NCBI GenBank assembly: GCA_022561215.1 | Contig: JADFRQ010000004.1 | Coordinates: forward strand, 20,820 to 84,819 | Length of the DNA: 64,000 bases | Direction: 5' to 3' | From: Chloroflexota bacterium | GTDB taxonomy: Bacteria; Chloroflexota; Anaerolineae; Anaerolineales; E44-bin32 | Part shown: piece by piece, positions 36,706-53,778 of the stretch | Layout: every line of letters starts with the position of its first letter | Numbering within the stretch: the first letter of the stretch is position 1 | Program-made: the position numbers and the translations under genes | Notes under the pieces: generated by a model | The model's input: only the letters and a program-made list of their open reading frames with translations | Told to the model about the DNA's origin: nothing | Databases searched by the model: none

Positions 36706-38079
36706 ATGGCCAATCAAAAAATGATGGGCTACCTGCCCAACGATGTACCGCCAACAGGACAATTAATCTTGCTTGGATTTCAACACGTAATCACCATGTT
36801 CCCGGCAACGGTATTTGTTGCCTTGCTCACGGGATTCCACGTAAGCACGGTGTTGTTTGCCGCTGGTGTATCTACTGTTGTCGCCTTGCTCCTTTCAAAG
36901 AGAGGAATTGGGAAATTCATCCCGCTTTTTTATGGATCTAGCTTCAGCTATATCGGCGCCTATTTGGCGATTACCAATGCCGAGTTTGGCGTGCCTGCCA
37001 GCGACGCATTGCTCTCGCAACTCCAGGCCGGCATTCTATTTACCGGATTGTTGAATATCGTTGTTGGATTTGTGATCCGAGCAGTGGGGAAAGATGTTGT
37101 CGATAAAGTGCTGCCTCCAGTGATCACAGGATCGGTCGCCGCGGTGATTGGTTTTGCGCTCGGATTTGCGGCTCTCAACCTTGCCACTGAGAATTGGTTG
37201 GTGGCGATTATCACCCTCTTCGTGACGGTGCTATTTTCCGTATATCTGCAAGGACGCGGATTTATCGGCATGCTTCCGATTCTATTAGGCGGCGTCGTTG
37301 GTTATATCGTCGCCGCAATTTTTGGCCTGGTTGATACCAGCGCCGTAGGAACTACCGCCTGGATCGTGGCTCCACACTTTACTTTTCCCACGTTCACTGG
37401 ATCTTTGGTGGTAACTGCTATTTTCAGTGTTTCGATCATGGCAATCGCTACAATCCCCGAATCGACGGCGCATCTGTATCAGATCAGCCTTTACGTGGAT
37501 CGCACTGCCGTAGAGATGGGAAGAGAGAAATACGAACTCGACAAAAGCATCGGCTTCAACTTAATTCTCGACGGAATCGGTGACCTTATTAACGGCCTCA
37601 TGGGCTCAACAGCGGGTACGAATTACGGAGAGAACAACTCGCTGATGGCGATTACGCGCAATTACTCCGGTCCGGCGCTAATCATGGCCGGCGTAATTTC
37701 CATGCTGCTCGGCTTTGTCGGTAAGTTCTCTGCTGTGGTGAGCACGGTCCCGCTGGCAGTGAGTGGTGGACTGGCGATTTACCTGTTCGGCGTGATTGGA
37801 ATGCAGGGAATTGCCCTTATGGTCGAGAGCAAAATCAACCTATTCGATCCTCGCACCTTGGCCATTGGAGCAACCATCATGGTCATCGGAATAGGTGGAC
37901 ACATTGGTTTTCCCGGTGGCTTCCTGCCCATCCCCATCTTGGAAGGCATCTTCCCATCTGGTCTTCCGGCAATTGCAACCGGCGCTGTAGCTGGCATCTT
38001 TATGAATGCCATTTTCTTGGTATTTACGCCACCTCAAGTGGCTAGGGAAAGCGCGCCCATGACCAGTAGCGCGGACTAA
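36706..38079 (+). CDS. NCS2 family nucleobase:cation symporter (uracil/xanthine permease family)
   Basis: 457 aa and polytopic, with the LLGFQHVITMFPATV opening and the GENNSLMAITR segment typical of NCS2 permeases. Confidence 0.9.
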   Translation: MANQKMMGYLPNDVPPTGQLILLGFQHVITMFPATVFVALLTGFHVSTVLFAAGVSTVVALLLSKRGIGKFIPLFYGSSFSYIGAYLAITNAEFGVPASDALLSQLQAGILFTGLLNIVVGFVIRAVGKDVVDKVLPPVITGSVAAVIGFALGFAALNLATENWLVAIITLFVTVLFSVYLQGRGFIGMLPILLGGVVGYIVAAIFGLVDTSAVGTTAWIVAPHFTFPTFTGSLVVTAIFSVSIMAIATIPESTAHLYQISLYVDRTAVEMGREKYELDKSIGFNLILDGIGDLINGLMGSTAGTNYGENNSLMAITRNYSGPALIMAGVISMLLGFVGKFSAVVSTVPLAVSGGLAIYLFGVIGMQGIALMVESKINLFDPRTLAIGATIMVIGIGGHIGFPGGFLPIPILEGIFPSGLPAIATGAVAGIFMNAIFLVFTPPQVARESAPMTSSAD

Positions 38080-38737: not shown

Positions 38738-39715
38738 TTATGCCTTCGCGGCGAGCACTGCAATAAAGCCGGCCAGTGCATCGGCCCCTGAAGTGTGACC
38801 AACTTTCAAAATTCGTCCAACACTGCACTCTATCGACAGATTCGAACTGTTGCCAAGTTCACCTAACAAATCATGCCAAGCTTCAACGGCTTTTCCCTCG
38901 GCCGCAGCTTCCAACCATATTCGAGACAAACGGTTTGTGCGTGACACCATCTCAGCCAGCATGGCTGATGCAAGTTCGCTGGAACGCCTGGCGCTATGCA
39001 GGATCCTCATTGCGTACAGCGCCCCAATCACAAAATCATCGCCTGACGGGGTGGAACCAACCCCCATTCCCGCCAAACCCGCAGCCCCTTCGCGACAGAG
39101 GGCGATGTCATCGTTGCGAATCCCCAGGCAGAGCAGTGAAGCGGGTTTCCAAGCCGCGGCAAGCAAGCGTGCATGCATTTGGGCATTTTCACTCGCCTTA
39201 ATCGCCTCCCCATGCACGAGCTGGGGGACGAAATCCAGAAGACTTCCCTCCATCGGATAATGTTTTGCGAATGCAGCAATGCAAGAGATCTTCCCCAACA
39301 GCTCGTTACGCCGAGAGCGAATGGCTTTCCATGGCACTCGCGAATCCCAGGGCTGTGCGTCCCGGAAGGCAACCACCAATGCTTCGACGCTCAGCTCTTC
39401 ATCTGTCACATGCACCGCGGAGGATAATTTCATCCAGCGCGAGAATGGGATTAAGGAGTCGCCGCTGTTGTTTATCGACGGAAGAATGAGATTATGTGGG
39501 CCGAGACCGATCTCAGGAGCAACGAGTGCAAGCATTTCCCCGCGCGCGTTGATAAGATTGCAAGCCATGTCAAAGATGTTAAGAATTCTTGCAGAAGTTG
39601 TGCTCGCCAACCATAGCAAGGCATCGATCGATGCCCGCTTGCTCGACCAGCGCGCAGGGTTGCTCTCAAGGGTTTCGTCTGCAAACTCTGCCAAACCGCC
39701 CGCGCCCATCGTCAT
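38738..39715 (-). CDS. DUF2877 domain-containing protein (YlbF/AllH-like)
   Basis: GVGSTPSGDDFVIGALYA motif and the N-terminal NIFDMACNLINARGEMLALV pattern. The ATG at 39715 overlaps the NmrA stop as ATGA. Confidence 0.75.
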   Translation of the reverse strand: MTMGAGGLAEFADETLESNPARWSSKRASIDALLWLASTTSARILNIFDMACNLINARGEMLALVAPEIGLGPHNLILPSINNSGDSLIPFSRWMKLSSAVHVTDEELSVEALVVAFRDAQPWDSRVPWKAIRSRRNELLGKISCIAAFAKHYPMEGSLLDFVPQLVHGEAIKASENAQMHARLLAAAWKPASLLCLGIRNDDIALCREGAAGLAGMGVGSTPSGDDFVIGALYAMRILHSARRSSELASAMLAEMVSRTNRLSRIWLEAAAEGKAVEAWHDLLGELGNSSNLSIECSVGRILKVGHTSGADALAGFIAVLAAKA

Positions 39716-40572
39716 GCCGACACTCGCTTGGTTCGCAGCACGCAATCTGCAAAAGTCGCCGGATCGCGCCCGATCAGGTGCCGCAGGGCATTCGAATTTC
39801 CCCAGAATCCGTATGTAGCGTAATACTGAAACATGGCAGTGAGTTTCTTGATAACCTCTTCATCCATTCCCGTATGGCGGGCATTTTGCTGCCAATTCAC
39901 AATGCGCTCTTCTACTGCCGCGACCTCTTGTTCGAGGATATCACTCATGATCGAAGCCATTTGCTTGGGCGTCAGGATTTCATTCCCACAAAGCTCGTAC
40001 GTTGCTCCATGATGCCCAGGAGTTGTCATTACCACGGCTGCCGCCTGAGCGACATCCAGGAGATCCACCATGCCCAATCGAGTATCGATCGGATAGGGAA
40101 CATGATATTTGCCTTCATTGATAATTCCATTCCAGCTTCCCATGATGTTTTGCATGTACGCTACTGGTTGGAGAATGGTGTACGGCAAACCAGCTTCAAA
40201 GAGCATATCCTCGACCAACAGCTTATCCCAATGATGGGGCATCGCGCGCACTTGCGGGTGAAGCACAGAGTGAAACACGAAATGTTCTACAGTATGACGT
40301 TTCGCCCACTGAATGGCTAGCTTACCCATTTCGACTTCGTAAGCGCACATATTAGGGCAAATATGATAAATCGTCCTGATACCAGAGAGCGCGCGATCGA
40401 AGGTAGATTCAAGCGTCATATCTCCGGCCAACGCCTCATGCGCACCGGCCGCCAATACAATCCCTTCCTGCTCCGGGCGACGGATCAGCGCGCGCACACG
40501 TGCGCCCGTGGCGTGCAATCCGCGGATGATGGCCTGCCCGGTTTTCCCGGCCGCCCCAGTTACGAGGATCAT
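39712..40572 (-). CDS. NmrA-family NAD(P)-binding protein (atypical SDR)
   Basis: MILVTGAAGKTGQAIIRGL Rossmann opening; NmrA-like length and layout. Confidence 0.85.
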   Translation of the reverse strand: MILVTGAAGKTGQAIIRGLHATGARVRALIRRPEQEGIVLAAGAHEALAGDMTLESTFDRALSGIRTIYHICPNMCAYEVEMGKLAIQWAKRHTVEHFVFHSVLHPQVRAMPHHWDKLLVEDMLFEAGLPYTILQPVAYMQNIMGSWNGIINEGKYHVPYPIDTRLGMVDLLDVAQAAAVVMTTPGHHGATYELCGNEILTPKQMASIMSDILEQEVAAVEERIVNWQQNARHTGMDEEVIKKLTAMFQYYATYGFWGNSNALRHLIGRDPATFADCVLRTKRVSA

Positions 40573-40617
40573 GTGAGATTTTGTCCTTTTTAATCTTTGA
40601 TTTTGGTTAAGTCGCGC

Positions 40618-41241
40618 CTATGGAGTGCCGAAGCTCTGCTTCGGCATCGCGCAAGTAGAGGCCTGAGCCGTGCTCAGATTGCGCACTCCAGAAGAACTCA
40701 TTCCACTTCTTCTACGTGTATTCGATCGGATCGGCTGCGCGAATACCTTTTCACGAAAGACTACCCTCGCGGTGTTCAGAAACCATGAGTAGCTTGAAAA
40801 TTCATAATCCTCAGGCCTATCGACATAACCGTGCTTTGAGGGATTCACATGTACATAATGCAATCTGGCGAGATAGGAACTCTCTTTTGTAATGCAGGTA
40901 TCCCAATAGTTGTACCAAACTCGACGACCCGGCATGTTGTCTGCACGATTAAGGTATTTCGCACTTATTGAATGGATGGCCTGGATCAAAGTCGATAAGG
41001 AGGGTGAGTTTTCCGGTGCTCGAGCAATAAAATGATAATTATTGGGTAAAATCGACCGAGCTTCTAATTCCCAACTCAGTCTTGCAGATTGACGAAATAA
41101 TATATCGACAAGAACCCTCTTTTTCGCATCGGTGTTTATTAGTCGCAATTTTGCATATATCGCAGCCGTAATTATATAAATACTATTCGGACGAAAAAGG
41201 TGAGGCGGCGTATGCGCGGATTCTACGAACTTTTCGTTCAT
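40618..41241 (-). CDS. IS200/RayT-like Y1 (HUH-family) transposase homologue
   Basis: The core ILPNNYHFIA...(HUH position) and LHYVHVNPSKHGYV align by eye with REP-associated tyrosine transposases (LPEHMHCIW, YIYINPVKHGWV). I start it at MNEKFVESAH; the track ORF extends to 41283. Confidence 0.8.
   Translation of the reverse strand: MNEKFVESAHTPPHLFRPNSIYIITAAIYAKLRLINTDAKKRVLVDILFRQSARLSWELEARSILPNNYHFIARAPENSPSLSTLIQAIHSISAKYLNRADNMPGRRVWYNYWDTCITKESSYLARLHYVHVNPSKHGYVDRPEDYEFSSYSWFLNTARVVFREKVFAQPIRSNTRRRSGMSSSGVRNLSTAQASTCAMPKQSFGTP
40622..40691. repeat. Structured flanking repeat, copy 1
   Basis: GGAGTGC-CGAAGCtctGCTTCGG-cat-CGCGCAAgtagaggCCTGAGCcgtGCTCAGaTTGCGC-ACTCC: the outer 7-bp stem encloses two hairpins. 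Confidence 0.8.
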
Positions 41242-41359
41242 CCTATCTATTCCAGAACGGGCCACGAATCTAGCGTGGCCCAAGCTCTAGATTTAGCTTG
41301 AGCTCTTCTCAGGTTACGCAGCAGTTGATCATTTAGCTGCCAAAAAAGGCAACACTTTT

Positions 41360-41430
41360 GGAGTGCCGAAGCTCTGCTTCAGCATTGCGCAAGTAAAGGC
41401 CTGAGCCGTGCCCAGGTTGCGCACTCCAGA
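41360..41430. repeat. Structured flanking repeat, copy 2
   Basis: Same sequence as 40622-40691 with 5 substitutions, two of which weaken the internal hairpins. Confidence 0.8.
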
Positions 41431-41473
41431 ATCCAGGATTTCCCAGTATCTTCTTCCTCTGGGAGCCTTTCTT

Positions 41474-43819
41474 CTACGCCGGCGATTGGGTTTCTCGCAC
41501 AAGCTCCCACAAGCGCCCAGGGCTCAACGGGATTTCCAAAATTTCGAAACCATCCAAGGCGAGTGCATTTTCGATCGCCTGTGCGAAGAGTGGTCCTACT
41601 GGAATCGCCCCTGCCTCACCGGCGCCCTTGATCCCCAATGGATTTAGGGGGGAAAGAGTCTCCTCATGGCCAACATCAATTCGAGGAATTTCCCGCGCAG
41701 TGGGAATCAGATAGTCCATGAATGAGCCATTTAACAATTGGCCGTTCTCATCAAAGGTCAATTTTTCGTAAAATGCATTACCGATGCCCTGCGCAACGCC
41801 CCCATGCATTTGACCATCCAGAATCATAGGATTAATCACCCGGCCACAGTCATGCACCACGACGAACTTTTGGATGTCGATCATCATCGTTTGCGGATCC
41901 ACTTCTACAATCATCGCATGCACGCCGCTTGCTGTCGTTCCCATTTCGGGGCCGAAATAATTGGTGGCCTCCAGTCCAGGTTCGGTTCCCGGCTTTACCG
42001 TCCCGCGCAGCGGATTTGCTTCAACCGCCAGCTGGCCAAGGGAAACCCCGCGCTGCGGTACACCGCGTACGAATACTTGACCACCGCGGATATCCAAATC
42101 TTCCTCGGCAACTTCAAAGCGATCGCTGGCCATGCGCAGAACCTTTGCGCGCACATCCTTTGCCGCTTCATTTATGGCATTCCCGGCAACCACGGCGCCA
42201 CGGCTGGCAAAGGTTCCGGTTCCCCAGTGAAACTGGTCGGTGTCACCGGTAACAACTTCAACATCTTCGATATCTACACCCAATTGTTCAGCCACAATTT
42301 GGGCGAAACTTGTAAAATGTCCCTGCCCCTGCGTGCCCACTCCTGTGACAACCGCAATTTTGCCGCTCGGCTGAATCTGGACCCTGGCGCCTTCGTAAGG
42401 GCCTATCCCAGTCCCTTCGACATAGGCCACGACGCCAATCCCAACGTGCCTGCCTTCAGCAGTTAACCTGGGTTGAACATTGTTCACAAAATCTATGTAG
42501 CCAATTCGTTCCAAAGCTTGATCCAAAATAGGCTCGTAGTTTCCACTGTCGTAGACCAGAGGCTGGAAGTCTTGAAAAATTATTTTGTTATCGAATGGGA
42601 ACGCATCCGCTTTAATAAAATTCTTTCGCCTGATCTCGATCACGTCCATTCCCAATTCTTTGGCCGCCAAATCCAACAATCTCTCAATGACAAAAACCCC
42701 ATGTTGCCGACCAGCGCCGCGATACGGAGTCACGATTGGTTTGTTGGTGAACACCGCAGTGAACTCACTATAGTAGTCAGGTATGTCATAAGGGCCCAGC
42801 AAGGTGCACTGACTGTTCAGCGGTACTGTTAATCCATAAGGGTCGTAGGCACCGGTGTCATGCAGAAATACATCATGCACACCAAGGATCCGACCTTCTT
42901 TGGTTAACGCGATTTCCGCGTGGTGTATTTGATCGCGCTCCTGTGTAGTCGCGACAAAATTTTCCGCGCGATCCTCGATCCACTTTACGGGTCGATTGAG
43001 CTGCAGCGCTACCCACGGAATAATCATTTCCTCAGGATAGAACATCATAATCTTTGGCCCAAATCCGCCACCGATAAAGGGTGCGATCACACGCACCTGA
43101 CTCTCAGATAATCCCAACATGCTGGCTAAACCATTACGAATGGGAATAGGGGCTTGGGTAGTATCCCAAACTGTCAGCCGCTGCGCTTTGGGATCCCATT
43201 CGGCGACAATACCCCTATTTTCCATGGCGGCTGCCGTTCCATGGTCGTAGTACAGACGTCGTTTTAGTATGATGTCTGCCTTCTCCTTTGCCTGCTGATA
43301 GTTGCCTTTTTCCTGAACCACATGTGCGGCGATGTTGGATGGAAGATCCTCATGTACAAGTGCGGATTGCGGCTCAAGCGCCTTCTCCATGTCGACTACC
43401 ACATCCAGCGGTTCATAATCGACCAAAATATCCGCCACGGCATCTTCAGCGATGTAGCGATCTTCCGCGAGCACCACCGCGATGGGTTCTCCGACATGGC
43501 GGACTTTGTCCCGGACCAGGATTTGTTGAGTGCGCTCATGGAACACAATGTTCTCAATGGGCGGTGGCGATACCAGCAACGGTCCGTTGCGCCAATATGC
43601 CCCAAGATCACTCGCCGTATAGACGGCTACAACGCCAGGGTGATCGAAGGCTTTGGATGAATCGATTTTGATGATCCTCGCATGGGCATAGGGGCTGCGC
43701 AAAAAAGCAGCATGGATCATTTTCGGGAGGTTGACATCATCCACAAATAAGGCCTGCCCCGTCAATAATCGAGGGTCCTCGCGGCGTTTAATTCGTTCTC
43801 CAAAGAAGCGTTTTTTCAT
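41474..43819 (-). CDS. Xanthine dehydrogenase family molybdopterin-binding large subunit (form-II CoxL-like)
   Basis: 781 aa of the aldehyde oxidase/xanthine dehydrogenase a/b-hammerhead plus Mo-binding architecture. The active-site loop reads TPYRGAGRQ, not the AYxCSFR of true CO dehydrogenases. Confidence 0.9.
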   Translation of the reverse strand: MKKRFFGERIKRREDPRLLTGQALFVDDVNLPKMIHAAFLRSPYAHARIIKIDSSKAFDHPGVVAVYTASDLGAYWRNGPLLVSPPPIENIVFHERTQQILVRDKVRHVGEPIAVVLAEDRYIAEDAVADILVDYEPLDVVVDMEKALEPQSALVHEDLPSNIAAHVVQEKGNYQQAKEKADIILKRRLYYDHGTAAAMENRGIVAEWDPKAQRLTVWDTTQAPIPIRNGLASMLGLSESQVRVIAPFIGGGFGPKIMMFYPEEMIIPWVALQLNRPVKWIEDRAENFVATTQERDQIHHAEIALTKEGRILGVHDVFLHDTGAYDPYGLTVPLNSQCTLLGPYDIPDYYSEFTAVFTNKPIVTPYRGAGRQHGVFVIERLLDLAAKELGMDVIEIRRKNFIKADAFPFDNKIIFQDFQPLVYDSGNYEPILDQALERIGYIDFVNNVQPRLTAEGRHVGIGVVAYVEGTGIGPYEGARVQIQPSGKIAVVTGVGTQGQGHFTSFAQIVAEQLGVDIEDVEVVTGDTDQFHWGTGTFASRGAVVAGNAINEAAKDVRAKVLRMASDRFEVAEEDLDIRGGQVFVRGVPQRGVSLGQLAVEANPLRGTVKPGTEPGLEATNYFGPEMGTTASGVHAMIVEVDPQTMMIDIQKFVVVHDCGRVINPMILDGQMHGGVAQGIGNAFYEKLTFDENGQLLNGSFMDYLIPTAREIPRIDVGHEETLSPLNPLGIKGAGEAGAIPVGPLFAQAIENALALDGFEILEIPLSPGRLWELVRETQSPA

Positions 43820-43852
43820 ACCATCCTCTCCTGAGCAATTGCAATAACTGAT

Positions 43853-44251
43853 TTAGGTTCGCCCGGAAAAATACTGCTCCAGGGGTTTGAAATAGTTATC
43901 GTCCCAACCTTCCCGGTAACTCTCACCCTGGCCCTCGGGAATTTGGGAATGCTTAAGTGTGATTTTTGTCCCCTCTGCAACTTCCTCGAAGAGGATATCC
44001 AGCGTAGAGTCTGCACTTTTCTGGGGAAATTCTGATGTTCTCCAGGATTGCCGGATGCGACGTCCGGGGTCGAGCTCGAGAATTTTCCCTTCGATATAAC
44101 CATCCCAGGCGGAATGAGATCCGCCCACTTGTGGATCAACTTGTGCCTTGCTGCCGGTAAATGCACTATGCTGCTCAGAATCTAGCCAGGCCTCATACAA
44201 AGATTTGGGTGTTGTATTGATGACCACCGATATTTCGAAGCTGTCGTCCAT
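43853..44251 (-). CDS. SRPBCC-superfamily protein (AHSA1/Aha1-like domain)
   Basis: 132 aa with FEISVVINTTPKSLYEAWLDSEQHSAFTG...GG...W.G...GKILELDPGRRI, typical of the Aha1/START-like fold. Confidence 0.8.
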   Translation of the reverse strand: MDDSFEISVVINTTPKSLYEAWLDSEQHSAFTGSKAQVDPQVGGSHSAWDGYIEGKILELDPGRRIRQSWRTSEFPQKSADSTLDILFEEVAEGTKITLKHSQIPEGQGESYREGWDDNYFKPLEQYFSGRT

Positions 44252-44276
44252 TTCGCCCTCCCCTTAATTCGTAAGC

Positions 44277-45065
44277 CTAATCATCATCCACAAATGCGAT
44301 GCAGCGGCAGAAAGCGGCTTCGCCGCCCTTAAACAACCAGGGGAAACATCCCAAGGTCAAACGTTTATTCTGCAACTCTGGAGCACCTATTTGGCCACCC
44401 AAATTTTCGACGTGGATACAGTCTTTGGGAAATAGAGCGTTATGCGTCAATTGGTAGGCAGAGTCTGGAAAATACTCCTTCATCTTGTCTTTGCCGAATT
44501 TTTCCTCGGCTTGTCGGGTAACGCGTTGCCAATGCTCCAAGCCTCCCTTACCCAGGAACCTCCCGATTGGCAGATTCATGGGGTGATCCGTGGAGATCAT
44601 ATCGACGCCCCAAATGTGAATTTTCTTCTCGATCAACCAATCGACGAGATCGAAATGGGGTCCTGGATGGCGTTGAATGTATTTTTCCTCATCCGGTTGG
44701 GATCCGTATTGACAGTGCTTATGCCACCCGGTATGAATAAAGAGAATATCCCCGTCGCGAACTTCGACGCGATCTTCAATCATCTTTGGAGTAAAAATAT
44801 CCAGCTCGTCGAGCTCATCACTTAAATCAACGATCACTCCATCGCCGTAAAGCCATTCGAGCGGAATTTGGTCGATCGTCTTTCCGTCGGTCATGAAGTG
44901 CCGCGGTGCATCGAGATGGCAACCCATGTGATTCGACGTTTGGATATACTGCGCATTGACTCCATGCTCTGCCTTACGTTTAATATATTTCACCTCGAAG
45001 GGAGGATAAAACGGCCAAAAGGGAGCTTCTTGGTCTAAAGGCTGTGATAGGTCGTAGAGTTTCAC
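44277..45065 (-). CDS. Cyclase-family metal-dependent amidohydrolase (kynurenine formamidase-like)
   Basis: The HxGxHxDxPxH motif is present as NHMGCHLDAPRHF, with a later GVDMISTD. GTG start follows GGAGGAAC. Confidence 0.85.
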   Translation of the reverse strand: MKLYDLSQPLDQEAPFWPFYPPFEVKYIKRKAEHGVNAQYIQTSNHMGCHLDAPRHFMTDGKTIDQIPLEWLYGDGVIVDLSDELDELDIFTPKMIEDRVEVRDGDILFIHTGWHKHCQYGSQPDEEKYIQRHPGPHFDLVDWLIEKKIHIWGVDMISTDHPMNLPIGRFLGKGGLEHWQRVTRQAEEKFGKDKMKEYFPDSAYQLTHNALFPKDCIHVENLGGQIGAPELQNKRLTLGCFPWLFKGGEAAFCRCIAFVDDD

Positions 45066-45103
45066 TGGTTCCTCCGGTTTCGTTGAATTAATATACCCTT
45101 TTA

Positions 45104-45204
45104 GTAATCCGTAATCAGTAACCGGTGAGCAGGATCGATCTCTTCCTGATTACTGATCACTGTTTCCTGATTACGGTTTTTCGGATTTTCTGATCCCTGA
45201 TTCC
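45104..45204. repeat. Cluster of CTGATTAC-type short repeats in the DUF1116-cyclase spacer
   Basis: CCTGATTAC occurs at 45145 and 45166, CCTGATTCC at 45196, the inverted GTAATCAG at 45111, and GTAATCC at 45104. CCGTAATCAG/CTGATTACGG form a 10-bp inverted repeat. Confidence 0.5.
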
Positions 45205-45227
45205 TGTTTACTGTTTTCTGTTTTTTG

Positions 45228-46472
45228 TTAATCCAACTCATACCTCTCCGCAAACGCTATTAGCGCCGCTTCAAAAATTTCCATTGGCGGGCGCACCAGT
45301 CCAGCGCCCACCTGTCCCACGCCAGCTTCCTTGTGGGCGATGCCCGTATTCACCCGAGGGGTAACCCCGAATTCAACCACTTTGCGCAAATCAATCCCTG
45401 TCGGTGTGCCGCGAAAATCCAAGGGGGGAATGCTGAAATGTTTATGTTCTGCAAAGGTGATCTCGTACATTTCCAAGGTGGCGTTGATTGCATCTTCAGG
45501 GGTACCACTGATAAATGTCACGATTGCCGGCGCGCCCGCCATGGCAAAGGCGCCAATGCCTGCCGTCTCCGTAATCGTGCTGTCGCCGATATCCGCATTT
45601 GCATCTTCACTAGTAAAATTCGGGAAGTACAAACCGTCCGGCACCTGTGCAGGCGCGGTAAACCAAGTTTCTCCCAAGCCACTTACCCGGATTCCAAAAT
45701 CGGTGCCATTGCGCGCCATTGCGGTAACGATGGTGCTGCCCTCCACGCCATGCCCCGCATCGGTCATCGCTTTGCAGGCAGCCATCACCGGATTAAGCAC
45801 GCTAAGTGCGTTGTCACCGAGGAATTGCAGTACTTCTTCTGCAACTGTGCTGTCTTTTACTATTTTGACGATCGACGGAGCAAGCAACTTGAGATAAATT
45901 AGAGAACCTGCTTTGTTGCGATTATGTCCTTCATCACCCATGTGCAATGCCTCTGCCAGAAGCGCACGTATGTCCATACCGTCGCCCTGAGCAAACGCTT
46001 CCGCAAGCACAGGAGCCATAACATCGTTCATCCAGTGCAGTTTTTTCAATACATCTTCGGCGTAGGCCCCATAACGCAGCACTTTGCCATAACCTTCATT
46101 TAAGTTGGAGTAAGCTTTGTTTCCGTGGGTGACGTTATCCAGCACGTACACCGCCATGGATGCCGAAGTGACACCTGCCATCGGACCGACGGTGCGATGA
46201 TGATGACATGGCGCAAATTCAATTTCTCCCGATTGAGCCATGCCTTGCGCTTGTTTCTCATCCTTGGCCAATCCTTCGAACAAGAGCGCTCCGATAACCC
46301 CACCACGCAACGGTCCCGACATCCGTTCCCATTCAATGGGAGGTCCGGCGTGCAAGATAAGATTATCCTCCATTCCTGGAATCACATCGCGTGCAATCTC
46401 AACACCTGTCAACATCGGCCGGGAGGAGATAATGCGATCGACCGCTGCTTCATTCGCCTTATCGATATTCAT
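45228..46472 (-). CDS. DUF1116 domain-containing protein (YlbE/AllG-like)
   Basis: From the internal Met: MNIDKANEAAVDRII...VIPGMEDNLILHAGPPIEWERMSGPLRGGVIGA, the pattern I associate with DUF1116. GAGGGA RBS. It starts 2 nt after the FdrA stop. Confidence 0.85.
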   Translation of the reverse strand: MNIDKANEAAVDRIISSRPMLTGVEIARDVIPGMEDNLILHAGPPIEWERMSGPLRGGVIGALLFEGLAKDEKQAQGMAQSGEIEFAPCHHHRTVGPMAGVTSASMAVYVLDNVTHGNKAYSNLNEGYGKVLRYGAYAEDVLKKLHWMNDVMAPVLAEAFAQGDGMDIRALLAEALHMGDEGHNRNKAGSLIYLKLLAPSIVKIVKDSTVAEEVLQFLGDNALSVLNPVMAACKAMTDAGHGVEGSTIVTAMARNGTDFGIRVSGLGETWFTAPAQVPDGLYFPNFTSEDANADIGDSTITETAGIGAFAMAGAPAIVTFISGTPEDAINATLEMYEITFAEHKHFSIPPLDFRGTPTGIDLRKVVEFGVTPRVNTGIAHKEAGVGQVGAGLVRPPMEIFEAALIAFAERYELD

Positions 46473-46474
46473 GC

Positions 46475-48157
46475 TTAGTCCCTCATTTTCTGTAGGATCG
46501 ACATAAGCTTCTCGTTGCCTCCTGCTGGAGGCCGCCAATTGACCTGTACCACTTTGGCTCCCTGCTGTTCTAAACTCTCGTAAAATGCCTCCAAACCAAC
46601 ATTTATCGCCGCCAATGGGGCGGCAAGATCCTCCAAATCGACAGGTGTCACAATCGATTCAGAAGGGCCTCCCAAGAGAGAGCCAATTGCATTCGCCGCT
46701 TCCAACACATTGCCAAACACACGCGCACCGGCATCAAGCAGCTGTTGGCGTTGGTGATCGTAATCTTGTGGATCTTCATCGGTCCCAATGAGAATCACGC
46801 CCACATCGAACGCATGCTGCCGGAGCACTTCGGCGATCACGGGTGCGAATTCGCCGGCCGGATCGATGTGCGCTCCTTCTCCCAAAACCATGTCGAGCAG
46901 GATAAATGCAACCTCGGGGTTTGCCGCCTCCTGCCTGAACATGCGCAATCGAAGATCGTTATCAATCATCGGATGCAATCGGCCCACAGTAAACTGGTCC
47001 TCCCCCAGATCAAGCAACGTGTGTTCGCGAGCCTTGGTGGGCTCGCCTAATCGTTCCCCACCAAAATTGGAATAAATTTTTCCGAACATTACTTGCAATA
47101 GAAGCAACGCTTCGCTGGCTAAACTCCCGCCAGAAAACAAACCGCGAATATAGCGACGATCGTTGCCCGTCTGGCGAGCAGAAGTTGCGCCCGCAGCCGT
47201 ACTCTGGTTGTTTTCGCCCAGGAGATCAACTGCCAGGGAGGCAGCCTCATTAAAATTGGACGCAAAATGCAGATTACCTAATTTTCTCGCCGGCGGTGAA
47301 TAACCGATAAAATTGACCACCACCGGCTTGCGGGTATTCCGGGCAGCACTTAACAGTTTGGTAGCGACCTCTGGATCTGGGGGCTTGGAAACCATGACGA
47401 TGACGCGTGTTTCCGAATCGCGCTTGAGTAAATCCAGAGATTGCAAGGCGGTCACACCCCCAATTTCCTTCTTGAGATCGCGGCCCCCTGTACCGAGCGC
47501 ATGCGAAATCCCTGCGCCCAATTGATGGATGCGGGAGGTCACGGCTTGCAGCCCAGTTCCCGCGGCGCCGATAAGGCCCACCCCACCGGAACGAACCCTA
47601 TTGGCAAATCCCAAGCCGATGCCCTGCACGATGGCGGTGCCACAATCCGGCCCCATCACCAGCAGGCCTCTTTCCTGTGCCATGGCCTTTAAGCTTGCTT
47701 CCTCTTCCATGGAAACATTGTCGCTGTATAAAAAGACATGCCGGTTACCTCGCAGCGCCTGCTCCGCCAGTCCAGCTGCGTAACGACCAGGAACCGAAAT
47801 GAGCACAAACCTGGCTTCCGGCAAGATATCGAAAGCGGCCTCCAAACTTCTGGGGCGGAACTTACCCGCAGAAGTCGACCTACGCTTGGCCATCAAATCA
47901 TCGATCGCAGCTATGGCGCTCGTTGCCTGATCTTCCTCTTCTGCCCTAACCACAATAAGTAGATCCTCCGGGTTTGCTTTTTGCGCTTCGGTAGGCAAAA
48001 GGTCACTCTCCGCCATAAGAATTAGGTTCGCCGGCGTAGCCATCACCACCCCGGCATCGAGGACGCCGGGCAAATCCAGCAATGCTCGCTGGAGATGCAT
48101 TAGGATAACCGAGTCAAAATAGGAACCTAATCGGATCTCGAACGTAGAAGTTGCCAT
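46475..48157 (-). CDS. fdrA: FdrA family protein (succinyl-CoA synthetase alpha-like, acyl-CoA synthetase FdrA)
   Basis: 560 aa with CoA-ligase/SCS-alpha type motifs (VMGPDCGTAI, GLIGAAGTGLQ, SHALGTGGRD). Confidence 0.85.
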   Translation of the reverse strand: MATSTFEIRLGSYFDSVILMHLQRALLDLPGVLDAGVVMATPANLILMAESDLLPTEAQKANPEDLLIVVRAEEEDQATSAIAAIDDLMAKRRSTSAGKFRPRSLEAAFDILPEARFVLISVPGRYAAGLAEQALRGNRHVFLYSDNVSMEEEASLKAMAQERGLLVMGPDCGTAIVQGIGLGFANRVRSGGVGLIGAAGTGLQAVTSRIHQLGAGISHALGTGGRDLKKEIGGVTALQSLDLLKRDSETRVIVMVSKPPDPEVATKLLSAARNTRKPVVVNFIGYSPPARKLGNLHFASNFNEAASLAVDLLGENNQSTAAGATSARQTGNDRRYIRGLFSGGSLASEALLLLQVMFGKIYSNFGGERLGEPTKAREHTLLDLGEDQFTVGRLHPMIDNDLRLRMFRQEAANPEVAFILLDMVLGEGAHIDPAGEFAPVIAEVLRQHAFDVGVILIGTDEDPQDYDHQRQQLLDAGARVFGNVLEAANAIGSLLGGPSESIVTPVDLEDLAAPLAAINVGLEAFYESLEQQGAKVVQVNWRPPAGGNEKLMSILQKMRD

Positions 48158-48190
48158 TCCTTTGCGTTCCTCCGTAGCACCCTTTGGACG

Positions 48191-49531
48191 TTAAAAATTG
48201 GTGTGGCCGCGCCCCTCGAATTCATAATCGAGCACTTTTTCAATACCTTCCGCCCACCCCAATAAAAGCTCATCGCCAAACCAGGCGCCCGCCAACTGCA
48301 GCCCGAGCGGAAGGCCCTGAGCGTTGCGCCCGGAGGGTAGATTAAGCGTGGGGAGGCCAGCCTGAGTCCAGGGTAAATTCATTATCGGATCTCCCGTGCT
48401 TTCCAAACCGCTTGGTGCTGCAGAAGGTGCACTCGGGGAAATCCAAAGATCGATGTTTCTGTTTTCCATTGCCGTGAGAAGCTCTTCACGCAATCGCAAT
48501 CTGGCTCGCAATGCTTCTCTCAACTCAGAGTCAGGAATCTCCATCCCGCTCTGTATCAATGTCCGCGTCTTGGAATGGTAGTGATCAGCATATTCTCCAA
48601 ACCAGTCTTGGTGTACCTTCGCTGCCTCCGCGGCCAGGATAAGATGATGCCTTTGCGTGATGCGTTCGAAATCCGCCAGAAGTGGCACTGCGATCACAAG
48701 GTAACCTGCATCCTTTAACTTTTCTTGCACAATCCTGAAGTGCGCATCCATCTCTTCGGAAACATGCTCCAAATACGGGCCCTCTGGCACTCCCAAGACC
48801 GGCAGCGCGCTTCGCTCCACCGGCGCCCAATCTAAAACAAGCACCGCAGCAACCAGTTTTGCGGAAGAGGCATCCCGGGTAAAAAATCCGACATGGTCCA
48901 ATGACTCGGAAAGTGGGATCACGCCCGATTTGTTTATGCGGTCAAAACTCGGCTTGAAGCCTACAACGCCACAATAGGATGCGGGGCGGGTGATGGAGCC
49001 GATCGTCTGCGTCCCCAATGCCAAGGGGATCATCCCGGCCCCGACTGCCGCGGCTGAGCCGCTGCTCGATCCTCCGGGAGTGTGATCAGGATGATGGGGA
49101 TTGCGCGTGGGCCCCGGTGCAAAATAAGCGAATTCAGTGGTAACCGTCTTGCCAAAAATTAAGGCCCCCTCATCTTTCAGACGAGTGACGCTGGCTGCCT
49201 GTGTGCCGGTTAATAACGCACCCGGCAATTTGCTGCCCGCGCGGGTGAGATATCCGTGTGCATGGAAGATGTCTTTCACCCCCACGGGAATGCCAAACAA
49301 TGCAGGGCGTTCTTGCACCGATGGATAACGCGCAAGCAACATCTGCGCCTCTTTCCGCAAACGACCGAAACGATCGTCCTCGGCGAGGAAGGCCTCTACG
49401 AAAGGCTCTTTCTCTTCAAAGATCGTCTGCAGGTCATCCAAATAGATTTCCAGCGCCGAATCACCTTTCGCCAGAGAGGCGACGAGCGAATTCAGATGCA
49501 TTCCTTCAATCCTCAGCTGATCCTTCATCAC
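48191..49531 (-). CDS. Amidase (amidase-signature family)
   Basis: GGSSSGSAAAVGAG signature with upstream VGVKD and TTEFA. 446 aa. Confidence 0.9.
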   Translation of the reverse strand: MMKDQLRIEGMHLNSLVASLAKGDSALEIYLDDLQTIFEEKEPFVEAFLAEDDRFGRLRKEAQMLLARYPSVQERPALFGIPVGVKDIFHAHGYLTRAGSKLPGALLTGTQAASVTRLKDEGALIFGKTVTTEFAYFAPGPTRNPHHPDHTPGGSSSGSAAAVGAGMIPLALGTQTIGSITRPASYCGVVGFKPSFDRINKSGVIPLSESLDHVGFFTRDASSAKLVAAVLVLDWAPVERSALPVLGVPEGPYLEHVSEEMDAHFRIVQEKLKDAGYLVIAVPLLADFERITQRHHLILAAEAAKVHQDWFGEYADHYHSKTRTLIQSGMEIPDSELREALRARLRLREELLTAMENRNIDLWISPSAPSAAPSGLESTGDPIMNLPWTQAGLPTLNLPSGRNAQGLPLGLQLAGAWFGDELLLGWAEGIEKVLDYEFEGRGHTNF

Positions 49532-49650
49532 ATCCTTCTAGAAAAATGGGCCGGTTTTTCACGCTCAATTTCTGGAGCATGTTTTGCGATGTTTAGGAGT
49601 AGAGTTTTGCAGGCCAATCCTGAGCGCACATGCTCCCGAATGCCCTCAGC

Positions 49651-50151
49651 CTAATCATCAGGGTTTGGTTGTCCTACTCCTCTTTCCGCGGCCAGTTTCA
49701 CCGCATCCACAATATTTTGGTAGCCCGTACAGCGACAAAGGTTGCCCGATAGCGCTTCCCGAATCTTTTCTTCCGAAGGGTGGGGGTTGGCTTCAAGAAA
49801 TGGAATGATGGTCATCAGGATTCCCGCGGTGCAAAATCCGCATTGCAAACCATGCGCATCCCAAAATGCCTGCTGCAGTGGATGCAACTCATCCGGGTTT
49901 GAGCCGAGCCCCTCCACTGTTGTTATTTGATGGCCATCGATTTGAACTGCAAATGTCAGACAGGAACGCACGGCTTCGCCGTCGAGCAGCACAGTACAAG
50001 CGCCACAGACGCCATGTTCGCAACCAACATGTGTGCCCGTCAATTCCATATCTTGCCGTAGAAAATCACTGAGAAGTAAACGCGGCTCAACCGCGTGGGT
50101 GCTTTCTATGCCATTGACGGTGATCTTAATGGGATGCAATGTCTTCTTCAT
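49651..50151 (-). CDS. (2Fe-2S)-binding small subunit of Mo-hydroxylase (CoxS-like)
   Basis: GCEHGVCGACTV and QCGFCTAG cluster motifs. Confidence 0.9.
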   Translation of the reverse strand: MKKTLHPIKITVNGIESTHAVEPRLLLSDFLRQDMELTGTHVGCEHGVCGACTVLLDGEAVRSCLTFAVQIDGHQITTVEGLGSNPDELHPLQQAFWDAHGLQCGFCTAGILMTIIPFLEANPHPSEEKIREALSGNLCRCTGYQNIVDAVKLAAERGVGQPNPDD

Positions 50152-51041
50152 AGGTTTTCACCACGATCTACATCTGCGCGTTGAAAGGCCAAATCCAGCG
50201 CGCGCAGTGTTAATACATTTGCCAGATGACGTTGAAAATCGACATTGGCATGCATATTTCCCAGAGGATCAATTTCGTCCTGCGAGGCCTTTTCAGCCGC
50301 CGCCTCAAAGGCTTGGTCATCGCGTGGCTGTCCTTCGAGAATCTTTGCGGCTTCAACTGCTTCCATGGGACCGTCCCCTGCGTTAAGGTAGACCAGGCAC
50401 GCTTTTTCGCAAACACCGTCTTCATCGAGTGTGATCCGTACCGCGATCCCCATCATGGCATAATCGCCTGCGCGCCGGGCGATTTCTTTGAAAGCCCATC
50501 CTGTGCGTGCACTGCTTTCCGGAATCGCAACCTCAACGAGGATTTCATCGGGATTGATATCCGTCGTAAACATGCCTTGAAAAAATTCTACGGAGGGGAT
50601 TGTGCGTTCCCCGCCAATGGATTGGACTTTAATTTGCGCGTCCACTGCCAGAGCGATCACTGGAAGCTCCGCCGCGGGATCTGCATGCACAAGGCTTCCA
50701 CCCAAAGTACCTCGATTTCTAATCTGTGGATGAGCGATACTGGGGATACTTTCGTGCAGAAGCGGGGCATATTGCGCAACCAAGTTGTCAAATTCCAATC
50801 GCCGATGGCGCGTCATAGCACCAACCAATAAATCACCGGCTTCATTCCGGCGAATATGATCCAATTCTTCCAGCTTATTTAGATCGACCAGCAGTGTCGG
50901 CTGCAGCATGCGAAAATTCATTGCCGGAACGAGGCTCTGTCCACCAGCAAGGATTTTTGCCTCTTCGCCATGTTCTTGGAGAATGCTGAGCGCCTGCTCT
51001 AGGGAATCTGGGACAATGTATTCAAATGCTGCCGGTTTCAT
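50148..51041 (-). CDS. FAD-binding medium subunit of Mo-hydroxylase (CoxM-like)
   Basis: AGGQSL, RNRGTLGGSL and a CO-dehydrogenase flavoprotein C-terminal-like region. It overlaps the small-subunit start by 4 nt. Confidence 0.9.
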   Translation of the reverse strand: MKPAAFEYIVPDSLEQALSILQEHGEEAKILAGGQSLVPAMNFRMLQPTLLVDLNKLEELDHIRRNEAGDLLVGAMTRHRRLEFDNLVAQYAPLLHESIPSIAHPQIRNRGTLGGSLVHADPAAELPVIALAVDAQIKVQSIGGERTIPSVEFFQGMFTTDINPDEILVEVAIPESSARTGWAFKEIARRAGDYAMMGIAVRITLDEDGVCEKACLVYLNAGDGPMEAVEAAKILEGQPRDDQAFEAAAEKASQDEIDPLGNMHANVDFQRHLANVLTLRALDLAFQRADVDRGENL

Positions 51042-51360
51042 CCAGAATCCTCCCCGCTATGCGATTGTTTTTATCGAAATTGAAAACCTGGTCATGAAAA
51101 TAACTTTCTATTGCGCTAATCCTCATTAAGTTAACACCGGTCTCTTGTTTTGGATTTGCCTTGACCAAAATAAATGCTTCGGTGGCAACCAGTTGCGCAT
51201 AATTAAATTATAGGTCTCCCCTTCGTCTTTCATTGTGCTGGAGAAGTTGTATTATTTTAGTATGATTCCACGCGTTGATCGATCAGATCAGGCATTTCAA
51301 GAGATTTGAGCATCCAGCCAATGCTGTGCGTTTTTTAGTAGCTAAATGGAAAGAGGTGCC

Positions 51361-52563
51361 ATGAGCGAAGAGAATGGTCTCCTGCAGGGCGTACGCGTAA
51401 TCGATTTGACGCGTATTTTGGCGGGACCGTATTGCACGATGATCTTGGGAGACCTTGGCGCTGACGTGATTAAGGTGGAGCATCCCCTGCGCGGTGATGA
51501 TACTCGTCAATGGGGCCCCCCGTTTGCAGAAGGAGGGCAATCCGCGTACTTCATCTCCGCCAACCGCAACAAACGCAGTCTCAGCTTAAATTTGAAAACA
51601 GAACGTGGCCTTGAAATCCTCAAACAGCTTATTCATGAAGGTGATGTGCTTGTGGAAAATTTCAAGGTGGGCACACTTGAACGATTGGGGCTCGATGAGC
51701 AATCATTAAAAGATATCAACCCGGGACTGATTTACTGCACTATTACGGGATATGGTTATACAGGTCCTTACAAGGATCGCCCAGGGTACGACTTTATGGC
51801 GCAGGCCCTGGGCGGATTTATGAGCATCAATGGCCCTGTCGAGGGAGAAGCCTACCGAGCGGGAATCGCCATTGCGGATTTAAGCGCTGGAATCTTCGCT
51901 TCCAATGCTATCCTTGCTTCGCTTTATCATAATTCACGAAAAGAGTCCTGGCAGCGCATTGACATCTCCCTTCTCGATAGCATGGTTGCGCTTACGTCCT
52001 ATGCGGCTAGCAATTATCTTGTCTCGGATGAGATACCGCAGCGCCTTGGAAATGCCCACCCTAATATCGTTCCTTACCAAACCTTCAAGGCCCGGGATGG
52101 CTATTTTGCCATGGCAATCGGCAATGATGGGCAGTGGAAAACATTTTGTGAGGCAATCGATAAACCCGATTGGATTGAGGACAGCCGATTCAAAACCAAC
52201 CCGGATCGGGTCGCAAATCGAAAAGTTCTTACCGCAATGTTGGAACATGTTTTTGAAAAAAACAGCATTGCTGAATGGCTGGCGACGTTTGAAAAAAACG
52301 ACCTGCCCGCCGCGCCCATCAATACCATAGACCAAGTATTTCAAAACCCGCAAGTTCAAGCGAGAAACTTGCAGCTCACAATCCAGCATCCGCTTGCGGG
52401 GACAATTCCGCTGCTTGGCTCGCCGCTGAAAATCCCCACCAATCCCACCCAAATGCGCCTCCCCCCACCGTTGCTTGGAGAACATACCGATCAATTGCTG
52501 CAGGAACTTTTTGATTATGATGCGCAGGTCCTGGAAAATCTGCACGAGCAAGGTGTCCTATAA
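51361..52563 (+). CDS. CaiB/BaiF family (type III) CoA-transferase
   Basis: GVRVIDLTRILAGPYCTMILGDLGADVIKVE and GYDFMAQALGG motifs. AGAGG RBS sits before ATG 51361. Confidence 0.9.
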   Translation: MSEENGLLQGVRVIDLTRILAGPYCTMILGDLGADVIKVEHPLRGDDTRQWGPPFAEGGQSAYFISANRNKRSLSLNLKTERGLEILKQLIHEGDVLVENFKVGTLERLGLDEQSLKDINPGLIYCTITGYGYTGPYKDRPGYDFMAQALGGFMSINGPVEGEAYRAGIAIADLSAGIFASNAILASLYHNSRKESWQRIDISLLDSMVALTSYAASNYLVSDEIPQRLGNAHPNIVPYQTFKARDGYFAMAIGNDGQWKTFCEAIDKPDWIEDSRFKTNPDRVANRKVLTAMLEHVFEKNSIAEWLATFEKNDLPAAPINTIDQVFQNPQVQARNLQLTIQHPLAGTIPLLGSPLKIPTNPTQMRLPPPLLGEHTDQLLQELFDYDAQVLENLHEQGVL

Positions 52564-52632: not shown

Positions 52633-53778
52633 GTGAGAAATGTCAGCGTTGTCGGAATCGCTCAAATCCCAGTCGAAAAGGCCAGTACGCGCAGCCTGCG
52701 TCAGCTTGGAGCCGAAGTTACCATCGCGGCGATGGCTGATGCAGGTGTAGAGAAAGTCGATGCACTTTATGCGAGCAACATGCTTTCCGATGAGCTCCAG
52801 GGTCAAAAACATATCGCTGCGCTCATCGCGGATGAAGCAGGGCTCACGGAGATTGAAGCGCTTCAAGTCCGGGCTGCAACGGCCAGCGGTGCGGCCGCTT
52901 TAAGGGTGGGGCATCTGGCTGTTGGCAGTGGGGAGGCTGATCTTGCAGTGGTCGTAGGCGTTGAAATCATGAGCCAGGGTGTCGCTTCCCCGGCCCTTTC
53001 CAAAGCACTGGATGCGGAAAGGGAGGTCGCCGATGGAGCCACCTTGATCAGTACAAACGCGGAGCTCATGCGCCTTTATTTTGACCGCTACCAAGTTCCC
53101 GATGATGGGTTGGTAAATTTTTCCTTGAACGCCCATCGCAATGCACGTCACAATCCCAACGCACTCTATCGCGATCGAACGATCAGTGCACGTGCAGTGA
53201 AAAACTCGCGCATTATCCACGCGCCATTGCGCCTGCTAGATTCTTCTCCCATTTGTGATGGCGCCGCAGCCCTCGTGCTTGCTCCGACCGAAGAAGCGCG
53301 CGCCTATAATCCACAACCCGTGCACATCCTTGCATCGAGTGTTTCCACGGATCGTTTTCGGATTGAAGATAGACAGGATCCCTTATGGCTGGAGGCCGCA
53401 CACAGCTCCTCACAAAAAGCCTTCCGACAAGCAAATGTGAACATTGATGAAGTTAGCTTCTTTGAGGTGCATGACGCCTTCAGCATCATGTCGTGTTTAT
53501 TGATGGAGGCCGTCGGGTTTGCGGAACCGGGCCAGGGTTGGCGTCTGGCGGAAGATAAAAAGATTACTTTGAAGGGGGAAATCCCGATCTCGACGATGGG
53601 TGGCTTGAAAGCACGCGGCCACCCTATTGGCGCCACCGCTCTATACCAGGCATGTGAAATTGTCATCCAGTTGACCCACCGAGCGGGAAAAATTCAAGTA
53701 CGCAACCCCTCCGTTGGAATGATGCAGAGCGTCGGCGCAGCAGCAACAACTGTCATCACCCACATCTTCAGCGCCTAA
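52633..53778 (+). CDS. Thiolase-like protein (SCP-x/archaeal-type thiolase family)
   Basis: 381 aa with the C-terminal HDAFS and GHPIGATA motifs of the thiolase fold. AAGGAG RBS with a GTG start. Confidence 0.85.
   Translation: MRNVSVVGIAQIPVEKASTRSLRQLGAEVTIAAMADAGVEKVDALYASNMLSDELQGQKHIAALIADEAGLTEIEALQVRAATASGAAALRVGHLAVGSGEADLAVVVGVEIMSQGVASPALSKALDAEREVADGATLISTNAELMRLYFDRYQVPDDGLVNFSLNAHRNARHNPNALYRDRTISARAVKNSRIIHAPLRLLDSSPICDGAAALVLAPTEEARAYNPQPVHILASSVSTDRFRIEDRQDPLWLEAAHSSSQKAFRQANVNIDEVSFFEVHDAFSIMSCLLMEAVGFAEPGQGWRLAEDKKITLKGEIPISTMGGLKARGHPIGATALYQACEIVIQLTHRAGKIQVRNPSVGMMQSVGAAATTVITHIFSA

Follow-up and report, generated by a model that had tools for sequence, protein, structure and literature searches.

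A conserved array around a CoxL-type hydroxylase

The 64,000-nucleotide stretch of a Chloroflexota genome analysed here (contig JADFRQ010000004.1, positions 20,820 to 84,819; hereafter the window, with positions counted from its first letter) contains an array in which the subunits of a molybdenum (Mo) hydroxylase of the CoxL/CoxM/CoxS type stand together with an amidase, a cyclase-fold hydrolase and the genes of an AllFGH-type carbamoyltransferase. The genes all lie on the minus strand, in the order CoxM-CoxS-amidase-AllF-AllG-cyclase-SRPBCC-CoxL-RAYT-NmrA-AllH. An initial annotation, made from the DNA letters alone, had described eleven minus-strand open reading frames (ORFs) at this locus. 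All eleven were found in an ORF listing at the coordinates it had given, and their Pfam and NCBIfam families are those it had claimed:

50148-51041, minus strand: CoxM-type FAD subunit of the Mo hydroxylase (Pfam FAD_binding_5 and CO_deh_flav_C)
49651-50151, minus strand: CoxS-type subunit with two [2Fe-2S] clusters (Pfam Fer2 and Fer2_2; eight Cys at canonical positions)
48191-49531, minus strand: amidase-signature amidase (Pfam Amidase), proposed malonamidase (malonamate to malonate and NH3)
46475-48157, minus strand: AllF/FdrA-type carbamoyltransferase subunit (Pfam CoA_binding and Ligase_CoA; NCBIfam NF004760)
45228-46472, minus strand: AllG (DUF1116) subunit (PF06545, 313 bits)
44277-45065, minus strand: cyclase-fold metal hydrolase (PF04199), proposed ring-opening (barbiturase-like) enzyme
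43853-44251, minus strand: SRPBCC/AHSA1 accessory protein (PF08327), present in few related loci
41474-43819, minus strand: CoxL-type molybdopterin subunit of 781 amino acids (three Mo-hydroxylase Pfam domains; TPYRGAGRQ loop), proposed uracil/thymine hydroxylase
40618-41283, minus strand: REP-associated tyrosine transposase (RAYT; NF047646) inside the array
39712-40572, minus strand: NmrA-like NAD(P)-binding protein (PF05368), its ATGA overlap with AllH indicating translational coupling
38738-39715, minus strand: AllH (DUF2877) subunit (PF11392, 82 bits)

The initial description of the junctions likewise holds: CoxM and CoxS overlap by 4 nucleotides, a gap of 2 nucleotides separates FdrA from AllG, and NmrA and AllH meet in an ATGA overlap. 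Two details had to be corrected, as CoxS and CoxL are separated by five genes where six had been counted, and the supposed IS200-like insertion is a RAYT, the transposase ORF scoring 91.3 against NF047646 (cut-off 80). No transcription factor is encoded in or beside the array, as had been noted.

Conservation was assessed in 80 loci whose CoxL is 71-77% identical to that of the window, found by scanning a single genome of each GTDB species; gene presence was scored by tblastn with the window proteins, and gene order was counted in the 49 loci with at least 7.5 kb of upstream sequence. The loci span Chloroflexota (Anaerolineales, Ardenticatenaceae, Caldilineales and Promineifilaceae), Acidobacteriota (Thermoanaerobaculia), a Zixibacteria metagenome-assembled genome (MAG) and a 'Polyangiaceae' MAG, and the exact CoxL protein was found on 11 metagenomic contigs with identical gene order. 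Among the related loci the order CoxM-CoxS-amidase-AllF-AllG-cyclase-CoxL-(NmrA)-AllH recurs repeatedly. AllF and AllG lie upstream of CoxL on the same strand in 42 of the 49 loci, 33 of which contain all five upstream genes (CoxM, CoxS, amidase, AllF and AllG); CoxM is upstream in 39 and the cyclase is present in 35 of the 49. NmrA is conserved in 18 loci and AllH in 23, and AllG is 65-81% identical throughout. Gene linkage is thus far beyond chance, with the same order across phyla; the initial annotation had staked its proposal on such linkage, which recurs strongly across related genomes. A few loci do have CoxM-CoxS directly before CoxL (L072, L073, L076 and L079), and we therefore regard the separation of CoxL from the other two subunits as a common variant that is not essential.

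ORF clustering revealed recurrent neighbours that are not in the window array, among them an XdhC maturation factor before CoxM in 11 loci and a NitT/TauT-type ABC transporter; where CoxG is also present, CoxG and then XdhC precede CoxM in other loci. Homologue searches with CoxL and AllG remained within one tight clade, all matches listed being at least 74% identical and in no distant contexts. The genes around the array in the window are as follows; with LctP and a MobA-like gene, the context genes named initially were all recovered by Pfam and NCBIfam:

36706-38079, plus strand: NCS2 nucleobase permease, UraA/RutG-like (best NCBIfam match uracil permease)
35385-36272, plus strand: MoxR/CoxD-like AAA ATPase (Pfam AAA_5), probable maturation factor
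51346-52563, plus strand: family III (CaiB) dicarboxylate CoA-transferase (PF02515), divergent from coxM, proposed malonate activation
52633-53778, plus strand: thiolase-like protein (Pfam and NCBIfam), co-transcribed with CaiB and following it in at least seven loci
54155-54598, minus strand: CoxG (SRPBCC; PF06240), probable electron/quinone or membrane link for the hydroxylase

The Mo subunits and the CO dehydrogenase label

The three subunits carry the complete domain set of a Mo hydroxylase: Ald_Xan_dh_C, MoCoBD_1 and MoCoBD_2 in L, two 2Fe-2S domains in S, and FAD_binding_5 with CO_deh_flav_C in M. This L/M/S architecture is shared with form II CoxL and carbon monoxide (CO) dehydrogenase-like hydroxylases, among them quinoline 2-oxidoreductase, 6-hydroxypseudooxynicotine dehydrogenase and form I CO dehydrogenase; the array differs from these in its TPYRGAGR loop and in an L gene that stands five genes away from M and S. 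The active-site loop of CoxL reads VTPYRGAGRQ and does not contain the form I motif AYxCSFR with its copper-ligating Cys. TPYRGAGRQ is invariant in all 82 CoxL relatives, and the motif also occurs in actinomycete homologues. The initial annotation had asked whether CoxL belongs to a clade of known substrate; we know of no characterised member of the TPYRGAGR clade, and the solved relatives score 554-437 bits, the top one being a CoxL.

NCBI and JGI name clade members (P0110, P0118 and P0119) 'aerobic carbon-monoxide dehydrogenase large subunit', and relatives at 76% identity likewise bear a CO dehydrogenase name; taken at their word these names would make the Mo enzyme an aerobic CO dehydrogenase ('form II' or group 5) with unrelated neighbours. 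Such an enzyme would fit the best NCBIfam match of CoxL, NF040766 ('aerobic CO dehydrogenase large subunit'; 941.9 bits, 8 bits short of the cut-off of 950), the CoxL at the head of the solved relatives, and the proximity of CoxG and a CoxD-like AAA ATPase, which is kept in locus L008 (67% identity) and in Embleya (49%). It does not fit the lack of the copper-binding Cys throughout the relatives or the score of 576.7 bits against TIGR02416, whose cut-off is 991, nor does it explain why the catalytic gene is set, in conserved order, among hydrolase and carbamoyltransferase genes; moreover, the literature regards CO as an improbable physiological substrate of form II enzymes (PMC6794299). On the strength of the active-site loop and the curated cut-offs we rejected a CO dehydrogenase, now an extremely improbable identity, and agree with the initial annotation, which had considered CO an unlikely substrate. 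The naming of the TPYRGAGR clade is probably a systematic over-annotation; metagenomic papers take PYRGAGR CoxL genes as potential for CO oxidation.

The carbamoyltransferase triad and its partner enzymes

All three genes of the oxamate carbamoyltransferase family are present, FdrA/AllF (521 bits against NF004760, cut-off 433), DUF1116/AllG and DUF2877/AllH, and Pfam now names DUF1116 (PF06545) and DUF2877 (PF11392) AllG and AllH, 'oxamate carbamoyltransferase subunits'. The connection of FdrA to this enzyme, made in the initial annotation, stands, whereas its status as merely proposed is superseded: E. coli AllFGH was shown experimentally in 2024 to convert oxalurate and phosphate to carbamoyl phosphate and oxamate, the sole proven reaction of an FdrA/DUF1116/DUF2877 enzyme (PMC11326118). 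AllFGH triads also adjoin triuret and biuret genes in nitrifiers (PMC12625717), and hydrolytic and phosphorolytic ureido cleavage are variants of one pathway in anaerobic urate degradation (bioRxiv 10.1101/2025.05.19.654654), which sets a precedent for exchanging one type of cleavage for the other. In the literature searched, no paper ties DUF1116 or AllFGH to a CoxL-type hydroxylase.

The array shares its three-gene architecture with E. coli AllFGH (allFGHK operon) and YahEFG, AllF being 38% identical to E. coli AllF and 40% to YahF, and AllG 50.4% identical to E. coli AllG and 50.5% to YahG. It differs from the E. coli system in having neither an adjacent carbamate kinase (allK) nor the allantoin genes allBCDE, in an AllH that stands apart from AllFG and is coupled to the NmrA-like gene, and in the placement of the whole set inside a Mo-hydroxylase operon. 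AllK, YahI, AllC, AllD and AllE have no match in the window, and for AllC, AllD and AllE of E. coli tblastn gave no hit in the related loci either. An E. coli-type allantoin/oxalurate branch was rejected because no genes of that branch were found and no orthology preference is apparent, and the reductive urate pathway (XdhD, YgfK, SsnA, HyuA, YgeW and YgeX) because its gene set does not match.

Malonamidase E2 (MAE2) is the best solved relative of the amidase over its full length (183 bits, ~36% identity over ~400 aligned columns), and the Lys, the GGSSSGS motif and the nucleophile Ser match in the alignment to 1OCK (Lys/cis-Ser/Ser positions). Arg158 of MAE2, also conserved here, was dropped as an uninformative marker; it is presumably conserved throughout the amidase family. 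Nine related loci contain an AMP-ligase after or near AllH, a gene that the window does not have. Its best NCBIfam match is malonyl-CoA synthase (541 bits, cut-off 558), and it scores 394 bits with R. palustris MatB, well ahead of the next non-malonyl ligase (278) and of oxalate-CoA ligase (265). Within the flanks that were fetched, this MatB-like ligase and CaiB are mutually exclusive among the related loci. CaiB, with homologues in Embleya and Rhodococcus, has succinate-hydroxymethylglutarate CoA-transferase as its best solved relative, and its top relatives are dicarboxylate CoA-transferases. By sequence similarity, the combination of an MAE2-like amidase, a MatB-like ligase and a dicarboxylate CoA-transferase indirectly suggests a malonate-type end product (malonate or methylmalonate). 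It recalls MAE2 of Bradyrhizobium japonicum and the mat (MatB) malonate system, given an amidase closest to MAE2 with aligned catalytic positions and a MatB-like ligase in related loci; the context there is symbiotic malonate metabolism and would here be nucleobase catabolism.

The metal motif of the cyclase, HMGCHLDAPRH at residues 46-56, is intact (family pattern HxGTHxDxPxH). The protein is distant from kynurenine formamidase and isatin hydrolase and scores 63.8 against KynB TIGR03035 (cut-off 223). In 15 related loci (L017, L018, L026 and others) AllG and the cyclase flank a four-helix-bundle gene (TIGR02436); in the window the AllG-cyclase gap measures 162 nucleotides and holds a 46-aa ORF, and a weak TIGR02436 homologue (29% identity) is found elsewhere (23957-24355, minus strand).

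The NCS2 permease carries the motif ENNSLMAITR, which is of the Glu type and resembles UraA and RutG, whereas XanQ and UacT have Gln; this Glu/Gln position is read here as a specificity marker of the NAT/NCS2 family. NCS2 copies 63-70% identical adjoin the array in other loci, and some loci are flanked by reductive pyrimidine-pathway genes, comprising dihydropyrimidinase (TIGR02033, 585 bits), a class-III aminotransferase and a nitrilase-type N-carbamoyl amidase. Elsewhere in the window there are a HAD hydrolase that weakly resembles pyrimidine 5'-nucleotidases (33411-34157, minus strand) and a nucleoside 2-deoxyribosyltransferase-family gene (20445-20951, minus strand), whose link to nucleobase supply is speculative.

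Actinomycete relatives were reached by tblastn of a plasmid collection that also includes mislabelled chromosomes. TPYRGAGR CoxL proteins were found in Nonomuraea gerenzanensis (49% identical to that of the window), Embleya sp. NBC_00888 (47%) and Rhodococcus sp. ZPP (43%). In all three, CoxM-CoxS is contiguous, and an NCS2 permease and a regulator of the PucR family are encoded as well. Embleya and Rhodococcus additionally encode CoxG (after CoxL), XdhC, a CaiB-type transferase and an NmrA-like protein (46% and 35% identical to the window protein, respectively). In Embleya, AllH-AllF-AllG are placed divergently, and an operon within 12 kb encodes NmrA, CaiB, an AccD/AccA-type carboxyltransferase fusion (plausibly an acyl-CoA decarboxylase), carbamate kinase and a ring-opening amidohydrolase of the AtzD/TrzD family (Pfam 498 bits). 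Rhodococcus sp. ZPP has no AllFGH; it does have a hydantoinase-B-type gene and an amidase, whose identity to that of the window is 29%. Across the relatives the constant core consists of permease, TPYRGAGR hydroxylase, CoxG/XdhC, NmrA and CoA activation, to which interchangeable modules are added for ring opening (cyclase, AtzD family or hydantoinase) and for ureide cleavage (AllFGH with amidase, or amidase alone).

Further clusters were noted in the same collection. The Embleya cluster (locus L096, 13629-22442) has as further neighbours a second PucR-like regulator, an NCS1 permease and a YahJ-like amidohydrolase, together with a caprolactamase-like hydantoinase A/B pair, which suggests that the cluster is part of a larger nucleobase/ureide catabolic island. 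Plasmid pSR8 of Aminobacter sp. SR38 (locus L092, 8860-22672) encodes fdrA, DUF1116, an AtzD-family ring-opening amidohydrolase, carbamate kinase, an amidohydrolase, a BMP-type ABC transporter and DUF2877; these genes may serve the phosphorolytic breakdown of ureides of the cyanurate/biuret or barbiturate type, and their arrangement suggests an independent link of the FdrA-DUF1116-DUF2877 triad to ring-opening enzymes, favouring a pyrimidine model. On the megaplasmid of Peptoclostridium acidaminophilum (locus L093, 3580-14183), DUF2877-fdrA-DUF1116 is accompanied by carbamate kinase, a cysteine hydrolase, two xanthine-type permeases and a PucR regulator; this is another AllFGH-type ureide cluster, in an anaerobe.

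A proposed pyrimidine route and its alternatives

Uracil/thymine dehydrogenase activity has been known since the 1950s, and the enzyme is expected to be of the three-subunit Mo hydroxylase type. No paper in the literature searched assigns genes to it. In the classical oxidative pyrimidine pathway barbiturate is opened to ureidomalonate, and the products are urea and malonate (PMC3758960, PMC7662398). The initial annotation had proposed an N-heterocycle/ureide system comprising uptake, hydroxylation, ring opening, deamidation and carbamoyl or CoA chemistry, which it could not map onto the characterised purine, nicotinate, picolinate or CO pathways. The general proposal is supported and sharpened by the further sequence evidence, and the gene set does map onto the oxidative pyrimidine route, which had not been considered. 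With moderate confidence we therefore favour oxidative degradation of a 2,4-dioxopyrimidine base, most likely uracil or thymine, via barbiturate and ureidomalonate, with phosphorolytic release of carbamoyl phosphate, deamidation of malonamate and CoA activation of malonate; we infer each catalytic assignment from gene content and conservation.

The base would be imported by the NCS2 permease and hydroxylated by CoxLMS at C6, uracil yielding barbiturate and thymine 5-methylbarbiturate, with electrons probably passing onward through CoxG. The cyclase-fold metal hydrolase would then open the barbiturate ring to ureidomalonate. We propose ureidomalonate as the substrate of the triad because the N-acylurea that yields malonamate is ureidomalonate, that is, oxalurate with one additional CH2; by analogy to the oxalurate reaction in E. 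coli, AllF-AllG-AllH with phosphate would convert it to carbamoyl phosphate and malonamate, so that the substrates would differ between the two systems and phosphorolysis of an N-acylurea would be common to both. The malonamidase-like amidase would release NH3 from malonamate, and the resulting malonate would be converted to malonyl-CoA by the divergent CaiB-type CoA-transferase or, in other genomes, by the MatB-like synthetase. Carbamoyl phosphate could enter biosynthesis or yield ATP through a carbamate kinase whose gene lies elsewhere.

Such a route would have the intermediates barbiturate, ureidomalonate and malonate in common with the classical pathway (uracil/thymine dehydrogenase EC 1.17.99.4, barbiturase and ureidomalonase; Rhodococcus, Mycobacterium and Corynebacterium), which also begins with a Mo/FAD/FeS-type dehydrogenase and ends with an amidase-type step, and whose AtzD/barbiturase family is represented near the Embleya relative. 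It would deviate in having a cyclase-fold hydrolase in the position of barbiturase and in replacing ureidomalonase by AllFGH phosphorolysis and a malonamidase-like amidase, giving carbamoyl phosphate and NH3 where the classical pathway gives urea. As barbiturase and the allantoin/allK context are absent, the array is a member of neither the classical pathway nor the AllFGH system as defined. More tentatively, and with somewhat less confidence than in the route as a whole, we suggest that the TPYRGAGR 'form II CoxL' clade could be the orphan uracil/thymine dehydrogenase, the cyclase a non-homologous barbiturase and the AllFGH paralogue a ureidomalonate phosphorylase (malonamate carbamoyltransferase) in an undescribed phosphorolytic pathway.

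Several observations weigh against the pyrimidine route. At its entry, we know of no sequence of a genuine uracil dehydrogenase for comparison, the genes of the classical enzyme being unassigned, and the permease directly after CoxL in Acidobacteriota loci is UacT/XanQ-like with a Gln-type motif, as is the adjacent permease in Polyangia loci. Ring opening is affected most: an AtzD-family barbiturase was not found in the window or the 80 related loci, we know of no precedent for a cyclase-fold enzyme acting on barbiturate, and Acidobacteriota and Polyangia loci have no cyclase within 10 kb, with inspection and tblastn with AtzD and HyuAB revealing no other ring-opening enzyme among the downstream ORFs of the cyclase-less Acidobacteriota loci. 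The AtzD-family protein of Embleya exceeds the NCBI cut-off for cyanuric acid amidohydrolase. The triad is as distant from AllFGH of E. coli as from the paralogue YahEFG, so that its substrate is not readable from sequence; carbamate kinase is not in the window and among the related loci occurs only in L046; the identity of the amidase to MAE2 is a modest similarity; and NmrA, SRPBCC and the thiolase have no place in the proposed pathway.

In one alternative, the same logic would apply to another oxidised nucleobase, such as xanthine or urate or one of their derivatives, and oxalurate or another N-acylurea would be processed to oxamate and oxalate or another dicarboxylate. Oxalurate and oxamate are, after all, the sole proven substrate pair of AllFGH, CaiB is moderately similar to oxalate CoA-transferases, and the UacT/XanQ-like permeases of the Acidobacteriota loci as well as the PucR-family regulators of the actinomycete versions point in the same direction. 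We nevertheless consider a purine substrate unlikely, since uricase, allantoinase, allantoate amidohydrolase and ureidoglycolate dehydrogenase are missing and the tblastn searches with AllC, AllD and AllE were empty in the window and the loci. In addition, the ligase is closer to MatB than to oxalate-CoA ligase, malonamidase is the closest relative of the amidase, the permease of Chloroflexota is of the uracil type, and the only known substrates of the AtzD family are barbiturate and cyanurate (PMC3758960).

Alternatively, pyrimidines might be degraded by the classical hydrolytic pathway, the amidase acting as ureidomalonase to give urea and malonate and the AllFGH-like triad serving another carbamoyl compound (e.g. 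biuret- or allophanate-like) or working in the synthetic direction. Rhodococcus sp. ZPP, with NCS2, CoxMSL, CoxG, XdhC, amidase, CaiB and NmrA in the absence of AllFGH, would fit this pathway and its established end products, and so would the triads near triuret and biuret genes in nitrifiers. Yet amidase, AllF and AllG are adjacent in nearly every locus, the Rhodococcus amidase has just 29% identity to that of the window, ureidomalonate is the closest possible analogue of oxalurate, and the genes identified in the window include neither a urease nor anything else that handles urea, the neighbours of related loci having been sampled only. Taken together, this makes the hydrolytic variant distinctly unlikely, and the phosphorolytic pyrimidine route remains our preferred reading.

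The RAYT is flanked by two structured, REP-like direct repeats of 73 nucleotides (40621-40693 and 41359-41431; DNA fold z = -4.5). Among the related loci compared, its insertion between CoxL and NmrA was seen in no other species; NmrA-AllH may thereby be uncoupled from the operon upstream. An Rfam scan of the window identified no riboswitch in or beside the array, the coxM-caiB intergenic region contains no inverted repeat, and promoter and terminator scans remained at background level. Outside this region the window contains housekeeping genes (metE, metH-like, metG, pheST and similar). The Rfam scan identified just two elements, both there: a SAM riboswitch (RF00162, 83.8 bits; 3640-3759, plus strand) lies just upstream of a cobalamin-independent methionine synthase gene (3818-6043) and a T-box leader (RF00230, 98.2 bits; 25488-25751, minus strand) upstream of pheS/pheT (24406-25431 and 21220-23772).

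The cultured actinomycetes bearing a related cluster make the phosphorolytic pyrimidine model directly testable. If it is true, the array would provide candidate genes for uracil/thymine dehydrogenase, and the AllFGH carbamoyltransferase family would gain a second substrate and pathway. One clade of the 'form II CO dehydrogenases', which metagenomic studies routinely read as CO oxidation potential, would also acquire a concrete and testable function, and widespread genes of Chloroflexota, Acidobacteriota and Actinomycetota that are annotated and counted as CO dehydrogenases would be nucleobase-catabolic.

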